A DNA stretch of 64,000 nucleotides. It comes from Escherichia phage wV7. The notes under the pieces were generated by a model that searched no databases, was not told the DNA's origin, and saw only the letters and a program-made list of their open reading frames with translations. The translations under genes were made by a program, and so were the position numbers. Within the stretch, counting starts at the first letter, position 1; each line of letters begins with the position of its first letter. Location: sequence record NC_019505.1; one strand, given 5' to 3'. This document shows, in pieces, positions 2,480 through 63,989 of the stretch.

Positions 2480-3484
2480 TTAGCTCACCAACTCAATCCA
2501 AGCTGGACGAAGTACATCTTGCACCATTTTAACTAATTCCTTTTTAATCAAAGAAGGATTATCTGCTTGAGTTAGAGTAATACCTTCACGAGAAGTTTCT
2601 TCCAAAATATCTTGGACAGTTAGCCCCATCACCTTTCCAAAATCCTTTGGACCAATTTCGCCAATTTTAGAAATAACGTTATTTACTCGGTTCAGTGTAA
2701 CGTAACAAGCTAAAATTCCCACCAATTTGTTATCAGCTTCTGACAATTCAACTTTAGCTTTAATAGGCTTATCAGACTTTTTCTTTTCACTAAATTTAGA
2801 ATTCTTGCATTTGATGGCTACACGATTGCGATTAGGCAGCCAAGAAGGATAACAAGGTTTCAATACATATCCTTCAGCGGTAAATACTTCGCCTTTGGCT
2901 TCGGCATTCCAAACGCATTTATTTGCATCAACTAATCCAGCATGGTCTACTGTAAAATTATAATCTTGGACGACAGAATCTAAATCATTTGGCAATTTAA
3001 TAAGCTCTTCAAATTTACCGCGACCTAAAAGTGGAGCCATTTTAAATTTAAATGTATTGCAGAATGATTCCATCATATAATCATCGACATAAGTCATGTC
3101 ACCACTTTCTGTAGTGACAATAATGTCAAATACATAGAAATCTTTATCACCATAATCAACATTCTTCTGAATGCCAGGTCCAGCGAATTCGCCAAAAACT
3201 TGATAAGATACAACCGCTGAAGTTTCCATAATATCTTGTACTGCTTTAATGGAATCAGCGTAATTCTTTAGAATAATTTCATACCCAAAGAAATCTTCAG
3301 CAGGAAGAATCGGTCCAGTACGTTTAGCGCAAGTTACTTTATCACGCTCAATAATCAATGAGAAATTTGTGCCGTGAATCTTTTCACGAGCTACCCATTC
3401 GCCGCCAGTCAATCCCAAGCTATAAAGTTTTTCAATAAATTTAGAGTTGTAATGATTTTCAAGACTGCTATACTTTTTAAACAT
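2480..3484 (-). CDS. rnlB: RNA ligase 2 (Rnl2)
   Basis: 334 aa, starts [19 protein letters not shown] and contains the KIHGTN adenylylation motif; matches recalled T4 Rnl2. Confidence 0.93.
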
Positions 3485-3493
3485 AATTAATCC

Positions 3494-3772
3494 TCAAAAT
3501 GTAATTTCTAACCAATCACCATCACGCTGATCACTATTGACTTTAAAATTAAATCCTTCTTTTCTCAGCCAATCACCAATTTCTTCAGTAATCAATTTAT
3601 CACGAGCAGTACAATAATAACTAAAATATGTTTTACCTTGTTCAGCTGCTTTATTAGCAAGTTCTGAAAAATCTTTAATAAAACACTCTAGCTTAAACTG
3701 TTTACTTTTTAATGCTTTTTCACGTAATTGATTAGCAAAAGATTCATTTTCATAAAGATCATACTGTTCCAT
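3494..3772 (-). CDS. Hypothetical early protein (24.2 position)
   Basis: 92 aa ORF in the T4 24.2 position; no recognisable motif. Confidence 0.55.
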   Translation of the reverse strand: MEQYDLYENESFANQLREKALKSKQFKLECFIKDFSELANKAAEQGKTYFSYYCTARDKLITEEIGDWLRKEGFNFKVNSDQRDGDWLEITF

Positions 3773-3974
3773 TTTTCACCTTTTTATTAATGTGTCTTTT
3801 TCTATAGACAACTTTTTCTCGAGTCTCAAATTTATTCTTTGCAGTCATAGCTCGAGCCCATAATACAGCCACTTCTTTCGCCTGTAAGTTTAATTCACGA
3901 GCAATTTCAATGAATGACTTTCCAGACTCATGAAGTGTAAACACCACAACTTCAGTTCTCATAATCAATCTCAT
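3759..3974 (-). CDS. Small helix-turn-helix-like protein (24.3 position)
   Basis: 71 aa; segment GKSFIEIARELNLQAKEVAVLWARAM resembles an HTH. Confidence 0.5.
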   Translation of the reverse strand: MRLIMRTEVVVFTLHESGKSFIEIARELNLQAKEVAVLWARAMTAKNKFETREKVVYRKRHINKKVKNGTV

Positions 3975-4043
3975 GTTATCGAGTTGGTGCCATTATATAC
4001 ATCATTTTCTGATTGTGTTTTGTGTGCTTTCAAAATGAAGAAA

Positions 4044-4060
4044 GGGGCCGAAGCCCCTTT
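4044..4060 (-). terminator. Hairpin GGGGC-CGAA-GCCCC 3' of hoc
   Basis: Perfect stem and tetraloop followed by a U-run on the minus strand. Confidence 0.65.
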
Positions 4061-4063
4061 CGA

Positions 4064-5488
4064 TTATGGATAAGTATAGATGATACCAGTTTCTAAAGCA
4101 GTTTTATGGATGATGTATCCATTACGTGATTCTTGAACATCAACTTCTGAATAATCTTTCATCATCTTCTGAAGCGTATAACGATGCAAGTAGTACTTAC
4201 TATCTGGATCTTCAGTTTTCCAATCTTTACCTTCTTCAGTCATTTTTTGGATTTCATCCATAACCCACCAACCGCACCAGATATAAGCTGAAGTACGATG
4301 TGGAAGAGGATGAACATAAGGCAATTCACCTTCTGGTTCCGGAGCAACTTTATCAGTTACCTGAACTTGACCTGTTGTTTTAACTGTTTTACTATCATAG
4401 TCGGTTGCTGTAACGACAGCAGTAACTTCAATAGTTTGACTTCCAATAGATGAGGTGTCAACGGTGTATACGTTAGTTGACCCTTCTACAGGAGAAGAAT
4501 CTTTCTTCCATGAATAAGTAATTTGTGCTGCTTCAGGTGCTCCAGTAACATTAGCCGTAAATGTAGCCGAAGCATCTTGCTGAACGTTAATAGAAGGAGG
4601 AGTCAATGTAACCTGTGGATTCATTGTCTTCTTATTAACTGTCAATGATACTTCATTAGAAGTAACTTCCTTTTCATTGTAATTTTCTGCAGTTACTTGC
4701 GCTACACATTTAATTCTTTTTACTCCACTTGTAGTTGGAGTATAGTTAAATGTAGAGTTAGTTTCTCCACCAATTTGAGAATCATCTACATACCACTTAT
4801 ATGTAGCAGACGCTCCATCAGGTTGAGAAGCTAAGGCAGCAGTAAATTGAACTGGAGTTCCAATTACTCCAGCTGAAGGACTATTAGGAGTTACAACTAA
4901 AGTAGTCGCTTGGGTTTTCTTGTTAACAGTCAGCGACACTTCGTCAGAAGTAACGGTCTTTGTATCATAATCTGTCGCAGTTACTTGAGCTACACACTTA
5001 ATTTTTTTAACTCCGCTTGTGGCAGGAGTATAGTTAAATGTAGCGTCAGTTGCTTCTCCCACAGGAGAACCGTCGACGTGCCATTGATACGTAGCAGATG
5101 CACCTGGCGGCTGTGAATCTAAGGCAGCGGTAAATTGAACAGCTGTTCCGATTACTCCTTCCGAAGGACTATCAGGAGTTACTGTTATTGTAGTAGTCTG
5201 TGTCTTATTTTGAACTGTGATAGTTGTCGTAGCTTCTGCTGTTTCAGGTTCAGATTCAGATTCTGGAACTGTATTTGTTGCAACGACTTTAATAGTCTTT
5301 TGACCGGCAGGTCCTTTTAGTACATAACTAAAAGTTGCTTCAGCTCCATCCTGTGGAACATTATCTACACTCCAAGCATAGGTAATAGTTCCACCTTCAG
5401 TTTGACCACTGGGTGCAGCAGTAAACTGCTTGGTTTCATCAATAACTCCTGTTGGGGTTTTAGGAGTTATATCAACTGTAAAAGTCAT
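4064..5488 (-). CDS. hoc: Highly immunogenic outer capsid protein Hoc, 474 aa with four Ig-like domains
   Basis: N-terminus MTFTVDITPKTPTGVIDETKQF and C-terminus ...IHKTALETGIIYTYP as recalled for T4 Hoc; internal tandem Ig-like repeats. Confidence 0.9.
   Translation of the reverse strand: MTFTVDITPKTPTGVIDETKQFTAAPSGQTEGGTITYAWSVDNVPQDGAEATFSYVLKGPAGQKTIKVVATNTVPESESEPETAEATTTITVQNKTQTTTITVTPDSPSEGVIGTAVQFTAALDSQPPGASATYQWHVDGSPVGEATDATFNYTPATSGVKKIKCVAQVTATDYDTKTVTSDEVSLTVNKKTQATTLVVTPNSPSAGVIGTPVQFTAALASQPDGASATYKWYVDDSQIGGETNSTFNYTPTTSGVKRIKCVAQVTAENYNEKEVTSNEVSLTVNKKTMNPQVTLTPPSINVQQDASATFTANVTGAPEAAQITYSWKKDSSPVEGSTNVYTVDTSSIGSQTIEVTAVVTATDYDSKTVKTTGQVQVTDKVAPEPEGELPYVHPLPHRTSAYIWCGWWVMDEIQKMTEEGKDWKTEDPDSKYYLHRYTLQKMMKDYSEVDVQESRNGYIIHKTALETGIIYTYP
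4643..5182 (-). repeat. Tandem in-frame duplication (~270 nt each) encoding two near-identical Hoc Ig-like domains
   Basis: Protein segments TPDSPSEGVIGTAVQFTAALDSQPPGASATYQWHVDG... and TPNSPSAGVIGTPVQFTAALASQPDGASATYKWYVDD... are near-identical; matching DNA around 4630-4770 and 4920-5060. Confidence 0.8.
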
Positions 5489-5497
5489 AAGTTATCC

Positions 5498-6178
5498 TTA
5501 TTTTAATGTTACGAAAGAAGAATTGCGTGTTTCACGAATTAGAACTGATCCGTCACGATTAATGTAGTAAATTAAGCTAAACAAAGTTTGATGCGCAGAC
5601 GCATGTTCAAAACTGGTTGGGCGAGATTTCCAATCTGGAGTTTCAGCAATCCATTGGTAAATCCACCAAGGAACAGTGCAGAATCCTGGATTTTTTCCAA
5701 TCAGCTGAAGATTCGGGCTAAAGTTTTCCGGAAGAGTAAATACAGACGGCTTTTCAGATTCAATAATCTTATCTACAGCTTGTTCAAACTTTTCTTCAAC
5801 AAAAGGAGTGTCTTCAATCAAAACATCAGTATTTTCAGGAATTTTATCCGTTTCTACCACTTCAATTTTAATATCAGATTTAACTGGAGAATCAATCAGA
5901 AGTGCTGCTTCTGGATTAACTTCTTCATCGTCATATTTTAATCCCTCTGCAGCATCAGCAGCATCAATTAAGTCTTTAATAGATAACCCATCAGTCTCTG
6001 GCATAGGTTCACTAGCGAGCTTCTGGAGGGCTTCTTCAATATCAACAACGATATTATCAAAAGATTTATTCTTTTTGACCTTTATACCAAATTGCTCAGC
6101 ATATTCAGCTAATTTAGCTTTAGCTTCTTTATTATCATCAAGAGCCTTTAACTCTGCAATATAATCTTTATCTATCAT
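5498..6178 (-). CDS. inh: Inh, inhibitor of prohead protease (head protein)
   Basis: 226 aa, located between hoc and uvsW as in T4. Confidence 0.8.
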   Translation of the reverse strand: MIDKDYIAELKALDDNKEAKAKLAEYAEQFGIKVKKNKSFDNIVVDIEEALQKLASEPMPETDGLSIKDLIDAADAAEGLKYDDEEVNPEAALLIDSPVKSDIKIEVVETDKIPENTDVLIEDTPFVEEKFEQAVDKIIESEKPSVFTLPENFSPNLQLIGKNPGFCTVPWWIYQWIAETPDWKSRPTSFEHASAHQTLFSLIYYINRDGSVLIRETRNSSFVTLK

Positions 6179-6191
6179 AATATTTCCTCAG

Positions 6192-6199
6192 TATAAATA
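6192..6199 (+). promoter_or_regulatory. Late promoter TATAAATA upstream of uvsW
   Basis: Exact motif about 30 nt upstream of the uvsW ATG. Confidence 0.6.
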
Positions 6200-6228
6200 T
6201 AGATATATTTATTACATGGTATTTAGAC

Positions 6229-7740
6229 ATGACTGACATTAAAGTACATTTTTATGATTTTAGTCACGTGAGAATTGATTGTGAAGAAAGTACATTTCAT
6301 GAACTCCGTGATTTCTTTAGCTTCGAAGCTGATGGGTATCGTTTTAATCCGAAATACAAATATGGCCACTGGGATGGACGAATCCGTCTTTTAGATTATA
6401 ATCGTCTTCTTCCATTCGGCTTAGTCGGGCAAATTAAAAAGTTCTGTGATAACTTTGGCTATAAAGCCTGGATTGACCCACAAATTAACGAAAAAGAAGA
6501 ATTATCAAGAAAAGATTTTGATGAATGGCTTTCTAAATTAGAAATCTATTCAGGAAATAAAAGAATTGAACCACACTGGTATCAAAAAGATGCAGTGTTC
6601 GAAGGATTAGTTAATCGTCGTAGAATTCTTAATCTTCCAACATCCGCTGGTAAATCTTTAATTCAGGCTCTGCTCGCTCGGTATTATTTGGAAAATTACG
6701 AAGGTAAAATTCTTATCATTGTTCCAACAACTGCTCTAACAACTCAGATGGCTGATGACTTCGTTGACTATCGTTTATTCAGTCATGCAATGATAAAGAA
6801 AATTGGTGGCGGAGCATCAAAAGATGATAAATATAAAAATGATGCACCAGTCGTTGTTGGTACATGGCAAACTGTAGTTAAACAACCAAAAGAATGGTTC
6901 TCACAGTTTGGAATGATGATGAATGATGAATGTCATCTTGCTACAGGAAAAAGTATTTCATCTATCATATCAGGTTTAAATAACTGCATGTTCAAATTTG
7001 GTCTATCTGGTTCATTACGTGATGGCAAAGCCAATATCATGCAGTATGTTGGAATGTTTGGTGAAATATTTAAGCCAGTAACGACTTCTAAGTTAATGGA
7101 AGATGGACAAGTAACTGAGCTAAAAATTAATAGTATTTTTCTTCGCTATCCCGATGAGTTCACTACTAAATTAAAGGGAAAAACTTATCAAGAAGAAATA
7201 AAAATTATTACGGGGCTTAGTAAAAGAAATAAATGGATCGCTAAATTAGCTATTAAGCTTGCGCAAAAAGATGAAAACGCTTTTGTCATGTTTAAACATG
7301 TATCACATGGTAAAGCTATTTTCGATTTAATTAAAAATGAATACGATAAAGTTTATTACGTATCAGGGGAAGTTGATACCGAAACCCGCAATATAATGAA
7401 AACCTTAGCTGAAAATGGTAAAGGAATAATTATAGTAGCTAGTTATGGTGTATTTTCTACTGGTATTTCAGTTAAAAATCTGCATCACGTTGTTTTAGCG
7501 CACGGTGTTAAATCAAAAATCATTGTATTACAAACAATCGGTCGTGTATTACGTAAGCATGGTTCTAAGACAATAGCAACAGTCTGGGACCTCATAGATG
7601 ATTGTGGTGTTAAGCCAAAATCTGCTAATACGAAAAAGAAATATGTTCATTTGAACTATCTTTTAAAACACGGCATTGATCGTATTCAGCGCTACGCAGA
7701 TGAAAAATTTAATTACGTAATGAAAACAGTTAATTTATAA
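6229..7740 (+). CDS. uvsW: UvsW DNA/RNA helicase (SF2), 503 aa
   Basis: Walker A-like TSAGKS, DECH box (MMMNDECHLATG), Q-type motif; size and position as T4 uvsW. Confidence 0.92.
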   Translation: MTDIKVHFYDFSHVRIDCEESTFHELRDFFSFEADGYRFNPKYKYGHWDGRIRLLDYNRLLPFGLVGQIKKFCDNFGYKAWIDPQINEKEELSRKDFDEWLSKLEIYSGNKRIEPHWYQKDAVFEGLVNRRRILNLPTSAGKSLIQALLARYYLENYEGKILIIVPTTALTTQMADDFVDYRLFSHAMIKKIGGGASKDDKYKNDAPVVVGTWQTVVKQPKEWFSQFGMMMNDECHLATGKSISSIISGLNNCMFKFGLSGSLRDGKANIMQYVGMFGEIFKPVTTSKLMEDGQVTELKINSIFLRYPDEFTTKLKGKTYQEEIKIITGLSKRNKWIAKLAIKLAQKDENAFVMFKHVSHGKAIFDLIKNEYDKVYYVSGEVDTETRNIMKTLAENGKGIIIVASYGVFSTGISVKNLHHVVLAHGVKSKIIVLQTIGRVLRKHGSKTIATVWDLIDDCGVKPKSANTKKKYVHLNYLLKHGIDRIQRYADEKFNYVMKTVNL

Positions 7741-7752
7741 GGGCTTCGGCCC
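7741..7752 (+). other. GGGC-TTCG-GCCC tetraloop hairpin at the uvsW/uvsW.1 junction
   Basis: Read directly; sits between the uvsW stop and the uvsW.1 ribosome-binding site. Confidence 0.6.
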
Positions 7753-7765
7753 TTTGGAGAAAAAG

Positions 7766-7999
7766 ATGTTACTAGAATTTAAACAATTTCTTTATGAAGC
7801 TTCTATTGATGAATTTATGGGTAAAATTGCCTCTTGCCAAACGATAGAAGGTTTAGAAGAACTTGAAGCTTATTATAAGAAAAGAGTTAAAGAAACTGAA
7901 TTAAAAGATACTGATGACATCTCTGTGAGAGATGCTTTGGCAGGAAAAAGAGCTGAATTAGAAGATTCAGACGATGATGAAGTAGAAGAAAGCTTTTAA
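7766..7999 (+). CDS. uvsW.1: UvsW.1, small protein with acidic C-terminal tail
   Basis: ATG at about 7766 (track ORF begins at an upstream TTG); ends ...AELEDSDDDEVEESF. Confidence 0.75.
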   Translation: MLLEFKQFLYEASIDEFMGKIASCQTIEGLEELEAYYKKRVKETELKDTDDISVRDALAGKRAELEDSDDDEVEESF

Positions 8000-8055
8000 A
8001 TTAAAAAAGGCCCAACCAAAAAGGAAGGGCCAAAACTATAGACTAAAGGTCACAC

Positions 8056-8223
8056 TATAGCAAAAGTTGTGTTTCATTTAATTGTTCTTCCGAACTTTCT
8101 GAAACTGGTAGTTCTTTAATGTAATTATAGCAAGGCCCAGGATGTACAGGACCTTTGTCTGTTTCAACAACCAATGCAGAATCGATTGGAGTTTTACAGA
8201 CAACACAAATCTTATCTGACATG
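8056..8223 (-). CDS. Small Cys-containing protein (~55 aa), not in the ORF track
   Basis: Hand translation: MSDKICVVCKTPIDSALVVETDKGPVHPGPCYNYIKELPV...; CxxC plus a distal C; uvsY.-2 position. Confidence 0.4.
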
Positions 8224-8345
8224 ATTGTCTCCTCTGAATTATATATCTATTTATAACCCCATCTTAAAGCGCATTTCTTGTACAAGCTTTAAACATGCTT
8301 CCATTTCTGCTAAAAGTCTAAATACTTCTTTATAATTTGTCATAT

Positions 8346-8573
8346 TTACCCCATATCTCTCATATGCATATCAATGCCCATATCTTTAGAATAAAAATAT
8401 TCATCAAGATATCCGGCAAATTTTCCTTTAATATAAAGGACATCTTCACCACACGGGTGGTCGGCCAGGATACGAATATCCTGACGCTTAAGATTATGCT
8501 TTTTCATTAAGAATTGAATTTCCGTTTCAAATTCTTCTTCATAATTAAAAGCGTCATCAATGTTATATCTCAT
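8346..8573 (-). CDS. Hypothetical protein (uvsY.-1 position)
   Basis: 75 aa ORF; its ATG overlaps the uvsY stop. Confidence 0.6.
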   Translation of the reverse strand: MRYNIDDAFNYEEEFETEIQFLMKKHNLKRQDIRILADHPCGEDVLYIKGKFAGYLDEYFYSKDMGIDMHMRDMG

Positions 8574-8986
8574 TATTTTCCAGCCTCAAATGCCCGCATG
8601 TCTTGAATATGCTTAATAGCAAATCCTCGTGATTTGATAGCATCAAGAGCTCCGCTACAGAAATCTAATAAAATTCCCCAATATTGTAATGAAGTATCAA
8701 CCTTTAAAACATCCTTATCAGCTGATAGAACTGTTTTCATTTCTGATTTCTCGTAACGATCCATACTAAATTCATCACCATCTCCTCGTCCCGAGTAGTA
8801 GTCTAATTTAGCTTTAAGAGCAACTTTTTTCTGTGCTTCAATTCTAAGCATTTCCTTTTTAATACTTGAATGCTTATTAAGCCATTTACTATATAACATC
8901 ACATTATTAGCTGCTTCATACTGTAATTTAGTCGAATCTATAAACACATCTTTCTTCAATTCTTCTTGAAGATCTTCTAATCTCAT
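8573..8986 (-). CDS. uvsY: UvsY recombination mediator
   Basis: 137 aa, starts MRLEDLQEELKKDVFIDSTKLQYEAANNV; size and context as T4 UvsY. Confidence 0.9.
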   Translation of the reverse strand: MRLEDLQEELKKDVFIDSTKLQYEAANNVMLYSKWLNKHSSIKKEMLRIEAQKKVALKAKLDYYSGRGDGDEFSMDRYEKSEMKTVLSADKDVLKVDTSLQYWGILLDFCSGALDAIKSRGFAIKHIQDMRAFEAGK

Positions 8987-9026
8987 ATTGTTCTCTATTC
9001 AATTGTTATTGGATGGACTTAGATTC

Positions 9027-20924: not shown

Positions 20925-20952
20925 TATTTATAAAATTAAAGGCCCGAAGGCC
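20925..20952 (-). promoter_or_regulatory. Late promoter TATAAATA (minus strand) upstream of alt, adjacent to hairpin GGCC-CGAA-GGCC
   Basis: Plus-strand TATTTATA about 20 nt upstream of the alt start; hairpin just beyond. Confidence 0.55.
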
Positions 20953-20953
20953 T

Positions 20954-21142
20954 TTAGTAATCTAGTGGTAAGAGAGTACGATATATTTCAAACTTTGGTC
21001 CTTTTTCATAGGCATCAAATGTTTCTGTAAATTTATTGTAAGCATATGCATCTACAAATTCGAGAATGACTTGTGATACAGAAGTAGAAACATCTCCACC
21101 TTCTTTTTGAGCAATGACAATTGTTTCTAAGTAAGCTTTCAT
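20954..21142 (-). CDS. Hypothetical small protein between ligase and alt
   Basis: 62 aa ORF; start overlaps the gene 30 stop. Confidence 0.5.
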   Translation of the reverse strand: MKAYLETIVIAQKEGGDVSTSVSQVILEFVDAYAYNKFTETFDAYEKGPKFEIYRTLLPLDY

Positions 21143-24840: not shown

Positions 24841-24879
24841 GTATTTTCCTCAGTAAGGGGCCGAAGCCCCTGTTTTATT

Positions 24880-25673: not shown

Positions 25674-25751
25674 ATACTATCACAAAGGAACCATACTGTA
25701 AACAACTTTGTGCAATCTTTGGAAAATAAAAAAGGACTCCCGAAGGAGTCC
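25674..25751 (-). promoter_or_regulatory. Terminator hairpin GGACTCC-CGAA-GGAGTCC followed by an early promoter (GTTTACA, 17 nt, TAGTAT)
   Basis: Minus strand: hairpin, ttttttattttcc..., gTTTACAgtatggttcctttgtgaTAGTAT, then the ribosome-binding site of ORF 25314..25646. Confidence 0.55.
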
Positions 25752-25756
25752 TCAAC

Positions 25757-54105: not shown

Positions 54106-54110
54106 AATGA

Positions 54111-54124
54111 GGGGCTTCGGCCCC
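54111..54124 (+). other. GGGGC-TTCG-GCCCC hairpin between genes 37 and 38
   Basis: Perfect stem and UUCG loop, followed by ribosome-binding site GGAG and the gene 38 ATG. Confidence 0.6.
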
Positions 54125-54136
54125 TTGGAGGTTTAT

Positions 54137-60162: not shown

Positions 60163-60240
60163 TTAGCGTCCGAAGACGCCTTTAGTTTTAAAATTATTAC
60201 GATAGAACTGCATCACATGTTCGTTATGGAAATTACTCAT
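60163..60240 (-). CDS. stp: Stp peptide (25 aa), activator of host PrrC anticodon nuclease
   Basis: [25 protein letters not shown] closely matches the recalled T4 Stp; TAATG overlap with the ndd stop. Confidence 0.7.
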
Positions 60241-62791: not shown

Positions 62792-62810
62792 AATTCACCT
62801 TAAAACAAAA

Positions 62811-62822
62811 GGGCCGAAGCCC
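62811..62822 (-). other. GGGC-TTCG-GCCC hairpin (minus-strand reading) upstream of ORF 62462..62791
   Basis: Same 22-nt element as at 63039-63050. Confidence 0.55.
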
Positions 62823-62827
62823 TTATT

Positions 62828-63022: not shown

Positions 63023-63038
63023 AATTTTCCTTAGTTAA

Positions 63039-63050
63039 GGGCCGAAGCCC
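63039..63050 (-). other. GGGC-TTCG-GCCC hairpin immediately 3' of rIIB
   Basis: Abuts the rIIB stop codon. Confidence 0.55.
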
Positions 63051-63989
63051 TTATTTAAATTGTTCAGTAACGTCTTCAATTACTTCGTATTGGCAGGTAC
63101 GCATTTTAGCGTCGTTGTAATCAATCGGAATTGATACTACATCACGAGGATGAACTTTAACTTTTACAACTCGGCTGGTTGAACCACCGAAGTGACGAAT
63201 ATAAGATTTAGAACACACATGCAGACCACGAGAACAAGTTTGTGTATCATCGTCATTCACACGAGTACGCGGCATTTTAACTACTTTACCAGGACTGTTA
63301 TCAAAGGTATTTGAGTGACAGTCAAAGTAATTATTGCGAACTACTTTCCAAGCATAGAAGTAACCATCTTCTGTAATTTCAATATCGTTTGCTACCAAGA
63401 AATCAAAAAGTCGAGATACCGCTTTCTGGCTTGGGTTTTCCAGCAGATTTTCCAAGAACGGAAAATAAAATTCAAAGTTTTCGCCTTTTTCCATCGAATC
63501 AAGAATACGATCAACCAAACCAGACCGCAATTCAATATTTTGATAGAATAAGCTTCCACCTTCAATTCGAACATCGCCGGAAATATATTTTTCAACAGCG
63601 CGACGAACATTAATTTTTTGTGCCGCTTCTTCCAGCTTATCCGCTACAAGCAGATTGAGAATTTCCTGGAAGTTTGAATGAGTATTAGGTGTTGCATTAT
63701 AAGTTACACCATCGACAGTAATCGAAATGAATTTTTTAGATGCATTCCAAATAATGTCAGATTTAGTAACTGGAGCAATAACTGCATCGCTATTAACTTT
63801 AACTGTAATATCACCGCTAATAGTAACTTTAGAGCGTTTAGCTTCTTCAGCATTTTTCAAAACACGACGGATTGTATCAACCGATACACCTTGCCAATCA
63901 GCCAATTCCTGCTGAGTATAATTACCGCTTGAATACAGTTTAACAATTTCAGCTTGTTCGTTTTTGGTCAGGCATTTAATATTGTACAT
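63051..63989 (-). CDS. rIIB: rIIB protein
   Basis: 312 aa, MYNIKCLTKNEQAEIVKLYSSGNYTQQELADWQGVSVDTIRR...; size as recalled for T4 rIIB. Confidence 0.9.
   Translation of the reverse strand: MYNIKCLTKNEQAEIVKLYSSGNYTQQELADWQGVSVDTIRRVLKNAEEAKRSKVTISGDITVKVNSDAVIAPVTKSDIIWNASKKFISITVDGVTYNATPNTHSNFQEILNLLVADKLEEAAQKINVRRAVEKYISGDVRIEGGSLFYQNIELRSGLVDRILDSMEKGENFEFYFPFLENLLENPSQKAVSRLFDFLVANDIEITEDGYFYAWKVVRNNYFDCHSNTFDNSPGKVVKMPRTRVNDDDTQTCSRGLHVCSKSYIRHFGGSTSRVVKVKVHPRDVVSIPIDYNDAKMRTCQYEVIEDVTEQFK

Follow-up and report, generated by a model that had tools for sequence, protein, structure and literature searches.

Sequence comparison points to uvsW and uvsW.1 of Escherichia phage wV7 as two separate genes with a T4-type hairpin between them

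Results

The uvsW/uvsW.1 junction of phage wV7

The helicase gene uvsW of Escherichia phage wV7 (record NC_019505.1) is followed at a short distance, in another reading frame, by the small gene uvsW.1, and the question is whether these are two genes or the parts of one. The window, i.e. the whole stretch of DNA that was analysed, comprises 64,000 nucleotides. An earlier note on the window left three options for the junction, namely a gene that is really split, an error in base calling or translational frameshifting; the comparative data described below uphold the first and speak against the other two. Judged by these data, uvsW and uvsW.1 are, with very high probability, two correctly sequenced and separately translated genes on one transcript. 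The features of the junction are the following:

6229..7740, plus strand: uvsW (SF2 DNA helicase, 503 aa), from reading of the ORF; stop codon TAA at 7738–7740
7739..7754, plus strand: intercistronic C(UUCG)G tetraloop hairpin AAGGGCTTCGGCCCTT, with the core GGGCTTCGGCCC at 7741–7752; includes the final two bases of the uvsW stop codon
7756..7759, plus strand: Shine-Dalgarno sequence GGAG, from the sequence; 6 nt 5' of the uvsW.1 ATG and 1 nt past the hairpin
7766..7999, plus strand: uvsW.1 (77 aa; UvsW.1 domain followed by an acidic, Phe-ending tail), ATG at 7766 and stop codon at 7997–7999

Reading of the sequence bears out what the earlier note had described as two separate ORFs in different frames with a GC hairpin between them. 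The TAA is where it had been placed, and the start given as about 26 nt further on in the +1 frame is the ATG at 7766, which follows a spacer of 25 nt (A-GGGCTTCGGCCC-TTT-GGAG-AAAAAG); UvsW.1 also has the reported acidic end ...DSDDDEVEESF. One statement had to be corrected. The uvsW.1 frame had been taken to be open from about position 7706, but it contains a TAA at 7718–7720 and a TGA at 7721–7723 and is open only from 7724. Fusion of the two ORFs therefore needs the deletion of one base within 7724–7737, and the proposed single-base fusion is thus possible, not anywhere in the 32 nt of 7706–7737 but in a stretch of 14 nt.

The translated ORF 6229–7740 ends in ...KFNYVMKTVNL and matched the Pfam families UvsW_N, ResIII, DEAD and Helicase_C. 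Residues 3–503 aligned with residues 2–502 of the crystal structure of T4 UvsW (2OCA) with E = 0; the protein has the N-terminal domain and the helicase core of this SF2 helicase and terminates at the corresponding position (around residue 502–503). The second ORF, translated as MLLEFKQFLYEAS...ELEDSDDDEVEESF (77 aa), scored 98.6 bits against the UvsW.1 domain of Pfam (PF11637; cutoff 25, E = 2.2e-28) and has the properties of a stand-alone ORF, that is, a length of about 75–80 aa, a position directly 3' of uvsW and a start codon of its own. It aligned end to end with the NMR entry of T4 UvsW.1 (2JPN); both begin with MLLEFK, and they differ by a single I/L substitution and an additional Asp in the tail. 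The two T4 structures, 2OCA (UvsW 1–502) and 2JPN (UvsW.1 from MLLEFK), were solved as separate proteins. The corrected T4 pair (Sickmier et al. 2004, Kerr et al. 2007; 2OCA, 2JPN) has the same arrangement as the window, with two ORFs, a 25-nt spacer containing GGGCTTCGGCCC and GGAG, and a UvsW.1 that starts with MLLEFK. Since the GGAG begins 1 nt after the hairpin stem, the ribosome-binding site is not sequestered. It is kept in the junctions of Tequatrovirus, and relatives with other types of junction also have a site of the GGAG/GGA/AGG type.

The T4 reference record and the possibility of a base-call error

The statement in the earlier note that UvsW and UvsW.1 of T4 are one polypeptide, the acidic tail of which contacts gp32, is the reverse of what the literature reports. 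According to Nolan et al. (PMC1524935), T4 uvsW was originally taken to encode a single polypeptide, a reading that was later revised to two ORFs; by crystallography and resequencing, two distinct ORFs were shown for T4 (Sickmier et al. 2004), the uvsW.1 region is absent from the T4 crystal form, and all five other T4-like genomes studied have two ORFs. PMC6486255 describes the split as conserved among T4-like phages and, with reference to Kerr et al. 2007, attributes the single-gene uvsW of NC_000866 to a likely error of sequencing. As for Perumal et al. 2013, the acidic tail named in its title is that at the C-terminus of gp32 itself and not of UvsW (review PMC5314882). The same review, of 2014, gives UniProt entry P20703 at 587 residues, and the erroneous fusion therefore persisted in databases. 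Because this 587-residue entry persisted and the tail in the title belongs to gp32, the statement is a merger of a stale database entry with a misread title; it was by a discrepancy of this kind, the fused T4 record, that the earlier note was misled.

The T4 reference record (AF158101.6 and NC_000866.4, identical in sequence) contains a single uvsW CDS of 1764 nt, encoding 587 aa. Its flanks are as in the window and its downstream frame encodes the same UvsW.1 residues, with the record net one base shorter than the window. At the junction TTTA-ATAAGCTTCGGCCC is found in the T4 record versus TTTATAAGGGCTTCGGCCC in the window (over a longer extent, TTAATTTA-ATAAGCTTCGGCCC versus TTAATTTATAAGGGCTTCGGCCC). 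The hairpin's 5' arm reads AATAAGC in the record in place of ATAAGGGC, by which the stop codon and the hairpin are both lost. All of the junction differences, net one base fewer, are confined to this GC hairpin arm, which is the signature expected from gel compression.

The distribution of the two versions was determined among 495 Tequatrovirus records. The 67-nt junction of the window was present at an identity of at least 99% in 445 of them, including four independent resequencings of T4 (among them T4 strain GT7, KJ477686, and OZ035787). A 66-nt query of the T4-record version matched exactly only in AF158101.6 and NC_000866.4. In two resequenced T4 genomes (OZ209023 and KJ477686) the uvsW CDS departs from that of the reference at only three places, i.e. 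nt 1369–1370 (AG to GA), nt 1330 in one of the two, and the uvsW/uvsW.1 junction; in OZ209023 two CDSs are annotated, of 1509 and 231 nt and 25 nt apart. Close relatives of wV7 have the same junction as the window: E. coli O157 typing phage 7 (KP869105.1) has an identity of 100% with positions 5000–9000, and a segment of 651 nt around the junction is shared without a difference by phage AR1 and Shigella phage SfPhi01, the identity with AR1 being 100% over 7400–8050 and 98.1% over 4 kb, where AR1 has segE.

If the window contained a base-call error, the true sequence would have one base fewer in 7724–7737 and encode a single protein of 580-odd residues, much as the 1764-nt CDS of NC_000866.4 does, and GC hairpins are indeed a typical place for sequencing artefacts. 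However, the same artefact would have to be present in 445 independently sequenced phage genomes, whereas the fused version is confined to two copies of an old T4 record, is contradicted by resequenced T4 genomes and is regarded as the erroneous one in the literature (PMC1524935, PMC6486255). The probability of an error in the window is thus regarded as negligible. Because the window junction is widespread and present in resequenced T4, with the fused version found only in the reference record, the window sequence is judged to be correct and the old T4 record wrong. The 587-aa, one-polypeptide UvsW is attributed to a misreading of the hairpin 5' arm in the original T4 record, which left it net one base short.

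Another difference within the reference uvsW gene was noted at nt 1369–1370 of NC_000866.4 (3046–3047 of the locus that was compared), where AG in the reference is GA in both resequenced T4 genomes and one codon is changed; this transposition of neighbouring bases is probably a further early misreading. It is common for the 77-aa UvsW.1 to carry the label 'DNA helicase' or 'ATP-dependent DNA helicase uvsW' (e.g. AR1_188), although it matches no helicase domain; in ECML-363 uvsW.1 is unannotated, and in T4 GT7 (KJ477686) both genes are. These mislabelled or missing annotations probably stem from the fused T4 reference. The matter is one of annotation only, with the label 'DNA helicase' placed on UvsW.1 in hundreds of phage records via the uncorrected T4 record; the junction itself brings no new biology, the split gene being ordinary, conserved and already documented.

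Junction arrangements in relatives and the possibility of recoding

The comparison with the corrected T4 uvsW and with relatives, which the earlier note had proposed as a check, comprised 49 IMG/VR loci with informative UvsW.1 homologues (49–97% identity), three annotated phage records and the window; for each locus the uvsW stop and the uvsW.1 start were located. Apart from the T4 reference record, which is represented by two copies and is the sole exception, all 52 informative loci had separate ORFs. The arrangement varied widely. Relative frames of 0, +1 and +2 are all present; some genes overlap, as ATGA (-4), TAATG (-1) or, in one case, by 7 nt (-7), and others are separated by short gaps of 6–10 nt with a ribosome-binding site (frame 0 or +1), by the 25-nt hairpin spacer, by 43–66 nt with unrelated hairpins, or by 352 or 714 nt. 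The 352-nt spacer belongs to one lineage (locus L052, about 2149–2500). In locus L011, the UvsW.1 of which is 92% identical, the uvsW.1 frame is closed by a stop codon 9 nt before the ATG.

The 714-nt gap is that of Yersinia phage PST (locus L005), in which a 693-nt homing-endonuclease gene (3326–4018; annotated mobD, matching phrog_655) lies between uvsW and uvsW.1, so that fusion is impossible across the insert. Hairpin, ribosome-binding site and ATG are still present downstream of it. The endonuclease gene overlaps the uvsW stop (ATGA), with a break point that corresponds to position 7723 of the window. The 3' end of uvsW is recoded (...EVKL* versus ...TVNL*), and the original last 18 or so nt of uvsW, together with the hairpin and the ribosome-binding site, now make up the endonuclease ORF's 3' end. 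In as many as 46 other Tequatrovirus records the match to the junction query begins only at base 20; they break off at the same query position and may carry an insert of the PST type.

Proteins were also inspected for a helicase-UvsW.1 fusion, i.e. a protein of helicase length that has a UvsW.1 domain at its C-terminus. None was present among the 34 matches obtained when 1.84 billion protein cluster representatives were searched exhaustively with a profile, and in a 5.8-billion-protein index all 74 clusters of UvsW.1 homologues are 52–96 aa long. Strong UvsW.1 homologues across both libraries are all 40–145 aa, with the reservation that both are clustered, so that a shorter representative may conceal a fused sequence; the 587-aa entry of T4 is absent from the matches.

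A functional UvsW-UvsW.1 fusion, beside or instead of the separate proteins, would require a programmed +1 frameshift or other recoding near the uvsW stop. The position of uvsW.1 in the +1 frame would suit such a mechanism, as would the stable hairpin downstream and the opening of the frame at 7724, right at an A-AAA-A run (7723–7726) where tRNA-Lys could slip. The frame relation is, however, not conserved: with gaps from -7 to +714 nt and all frames represented, no frameshift mechanism could be conserved across the relatives, and the geometry is broken in closely related loci, by the stop codon between hairpin and ATG in L011 and by the endonuclease gene in PST-type phages. The sequence at the site (AAT TTA TAA G) contains no prfB-like motif, and a slip there would require the last sense codon, UUA, to re-pair on UAU; an internal Shine-Dalgarno sequence is absent upstream, which leaves the run of four A at 7723–7726. 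With sites of the prfB type the junction has in common only the +1 frame relation and the stop codon that ends the upstream frame. It lacks the slippery stop context similar to CUU-UGA-C and the upstream internal Shine-Dalgarno sequence, and it differs in that the frame geometry is not conserved and that the downstream ORF has initiation signals of its own (GGAG, a 6-nt spacer and ATG). Moreover, the hairpin starts inside the stop codon and not at the 5–9-nt spacing typical of stimulatory structures, such structures are known for -1 and not for +1 frameshifting, and the same hairpin module occurs 3' of many unrelated genes. Programmed recoding is therefore considered highly improbable. There is an equally slight chance of low-level +1 slippage on A-AAA-A, which would yield a minor fused UvsW-UvsW.1 in Tequatrovirus only, beside both separate proteins. 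As far as comparison of sequences can refute them, a base-call error and frameshifting are refuted. A fusion would give a UvsW species of about 68 kDa with the junction peptide ...NYVMKQLIYKGFGPLEKKMLLEFK and no free UvsW.1 of 8.9 kDa. In terms of peptides, ...NYVMKQLIYKGFGPLEKK across the junction would mean fusion, and the UvsW end ...TVNL together with the UvsW.1 start (M)LLEFK would mean two proteins.

The intercistronic hairpin

UUCG tetraloops were originally discovered in the mRNA of T4 (PMC4371310). The T4 intercistronic hairpins of the C(UUCG)G class (Tuerk et al. 1988, in PMC4371310) have a UUCG loop closed by C:G and a GC-rich stem of 4–6 bp, and lie after a stop codon and ahead of the next ribosome-binding site; the hairpin of the junction agrees in all of these properties, and nothing sets this copy apart from the class. 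As RNA, the 19-nt segment of the hairpin has a folding energy of -9.3 kcal/mol (z = -2.69), which was equalled by 2 of 200 shuffled sequences. A larger structure was rejected; the 76-nt context (z = -0.31) is not unusually stable, so that only the local hairpin stands out.

Hairpins with a TTCG loop are over-represented in the window as a whole, with 17 (stems of 4 bp or more) against 2.4 ± 1.3 expected from shuffled sequences. Eleven are GC-rich C(TTCG)G hairpins, nearly all of which start between -3 and +13 nt from a stop codon, and for six or seven of these 11 the ATG of the next gene, preceded by a ribosome-binding site, follows within 11–17 nt. The order of stop codon, hairpin, ribosome-binding site and ATG recurs at 24856, 54110, 60166, 62809 and 63036. 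The exact 16-mer AAGGGCTTCGGCCCTT is found again at 62809–62824 and inside 63036–63053, on the minus strand. The uvsW/uvsW.1 junction is one copy of the standard T4 intercistronic module. C(TTCG)G hairpins after stop codons were located at 1097–1116, 4040–4061, 20937–20956, 24856–24871, 25733–25752, 54110–54125, 60166–60179, 62809–62824 and 63036–63053; they often sit directly before the next ribosome-binding site.

The hairpin could also lower the transcription of uvsW.1 relative to uvsW, as a partial intrinsic terminator or weak attenuator. Some depositors annotate a 'terminator' at the junction (KT184308, MZ726795, OL960581), and in more distant relatives, with gaps of 43–66 nt, different hairpins are followed by T-rich tails (e.g. 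GGGGCTTTAATGCCCCTTTATT). A rho-independent terminator has a GC-rich stem followed by at least five T in 8 nt, whereas only three T residues come after the stem here (tail TTTGGAGA), and a consensus terminator scan does not call the junction hairpin. Many relatives, moreover, lack the hairpin altogether and have their genes coupled by ATGA or TAATG overlaps, which imply co-expression. Attenuation is consequently thought unlikely, though much less so than recoding. The hairpin would most likely act as a local RNA-stability or insulating element and not as a recoding signal.

A further hairpin lies beyond uvsW.1:

8009..8031, no strand assigned: hairpin GGCCC...GGGCC between the converging uvsW.1 and uvsY.-2; -12.6 kcal/mol, z = -2.74

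Its position coincides with that given in the literature for a conserved bidirectional terminator downstream of uvsW.1 (Nolan 2006, PMC1524935).

Expression of uvsW and uvsW.1

Upstream of uvsW a candidate promoter was found by pattern search:

6192..6199, plus strand: match to the T4 late-promoter consensus, TATAAATA; 30 nt 5' of the uvsW ATG

The motif is likely the promoter of a joint uvsW-uvsW.1 transcript. Between the two genes, pattern search and a scan of the spacer yielded neither a TATAAATA motif nor a convincing sigma-70-like site, and a promoter of its own for uvsW.1 was therefore rejected. With a late-promoter-like motif before uvsW and none before uvsW.1, the two genes are probably co-transcribed. 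In the sequence of events that we propose, transcription would probably begin at the late-promoter-like TATAAATA at 6192. Ribosomes on uvsW then meet the TAA at 7738–7740; in the 25-nt spacer the very stable C(UUCG)G hairpin is followed directly by the GGAG ribosome-binding site, and uvsW.1, with its own ATG at 7766, encodes the 77-aa protein. The hairpin would serve here as one copy of the module of stop codon, hairpin and ribosome-binding site that phages of the T4 type appear to use between many genes.

The region 5' of uvsW differs from that of T4. In the window (6179–6365) segE is absent between inh and uvsW, where AR1 and T4 have a segE of 618 nt, and uvsW diverges strongly from T4 over its 5' 136 nt, which hold about 38 of the 80 differences across uvsW-uvsW.1. 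This 5' divergence looks like a segE-associated recoding or co-conversion tract.

The UvsW.1 protein and its homologues

UvsW.1 is said to bind UvsW physically, as a small accessory subunit, and reportedly modulates its annealing activity. The C-terminal acidic run of UvsW.1 (window 7955–7996) ends in a Phe that is invariant in 15 of 15 aligned homologues (...DDEVEESF, ...EEEDF). The tail of bacterial SSB is likewise acidic and Phe-terminated (DDDIPF), and this likeness suggests that the acidic, Phe-ended tail of UvsW.1 is a putative docking peptide.

Two variants of the protein were noted among the homologues. The UvsW.1 of Enterobacteria phage vB_EcoM_IME339 (96 aa) contains an internal tandem duplication of about 20 aa, with CQTLEGLEELEAYYKKRVK present twice. 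Metagenomic proteins of 260–301 aa (P0094–P0103; locus L058, 727–1632) have the UvsW.1 domain at the N-terminus (Pfam, 62–83 bits). One of these (P0094) also matches the PHROG cytidyltransferase families phrog_3041 and phrog_395, and another (P0096) has a weak Pfam cytidylyltransferase-like match under the cutoff. P0094 matches in addition phrog_14207, the label of which, 'DNA helicase', is probably an annotation carry-over. On one short contig with a protein of this 260–301-aa type, the upstream gene bears no similarity to UvsW.
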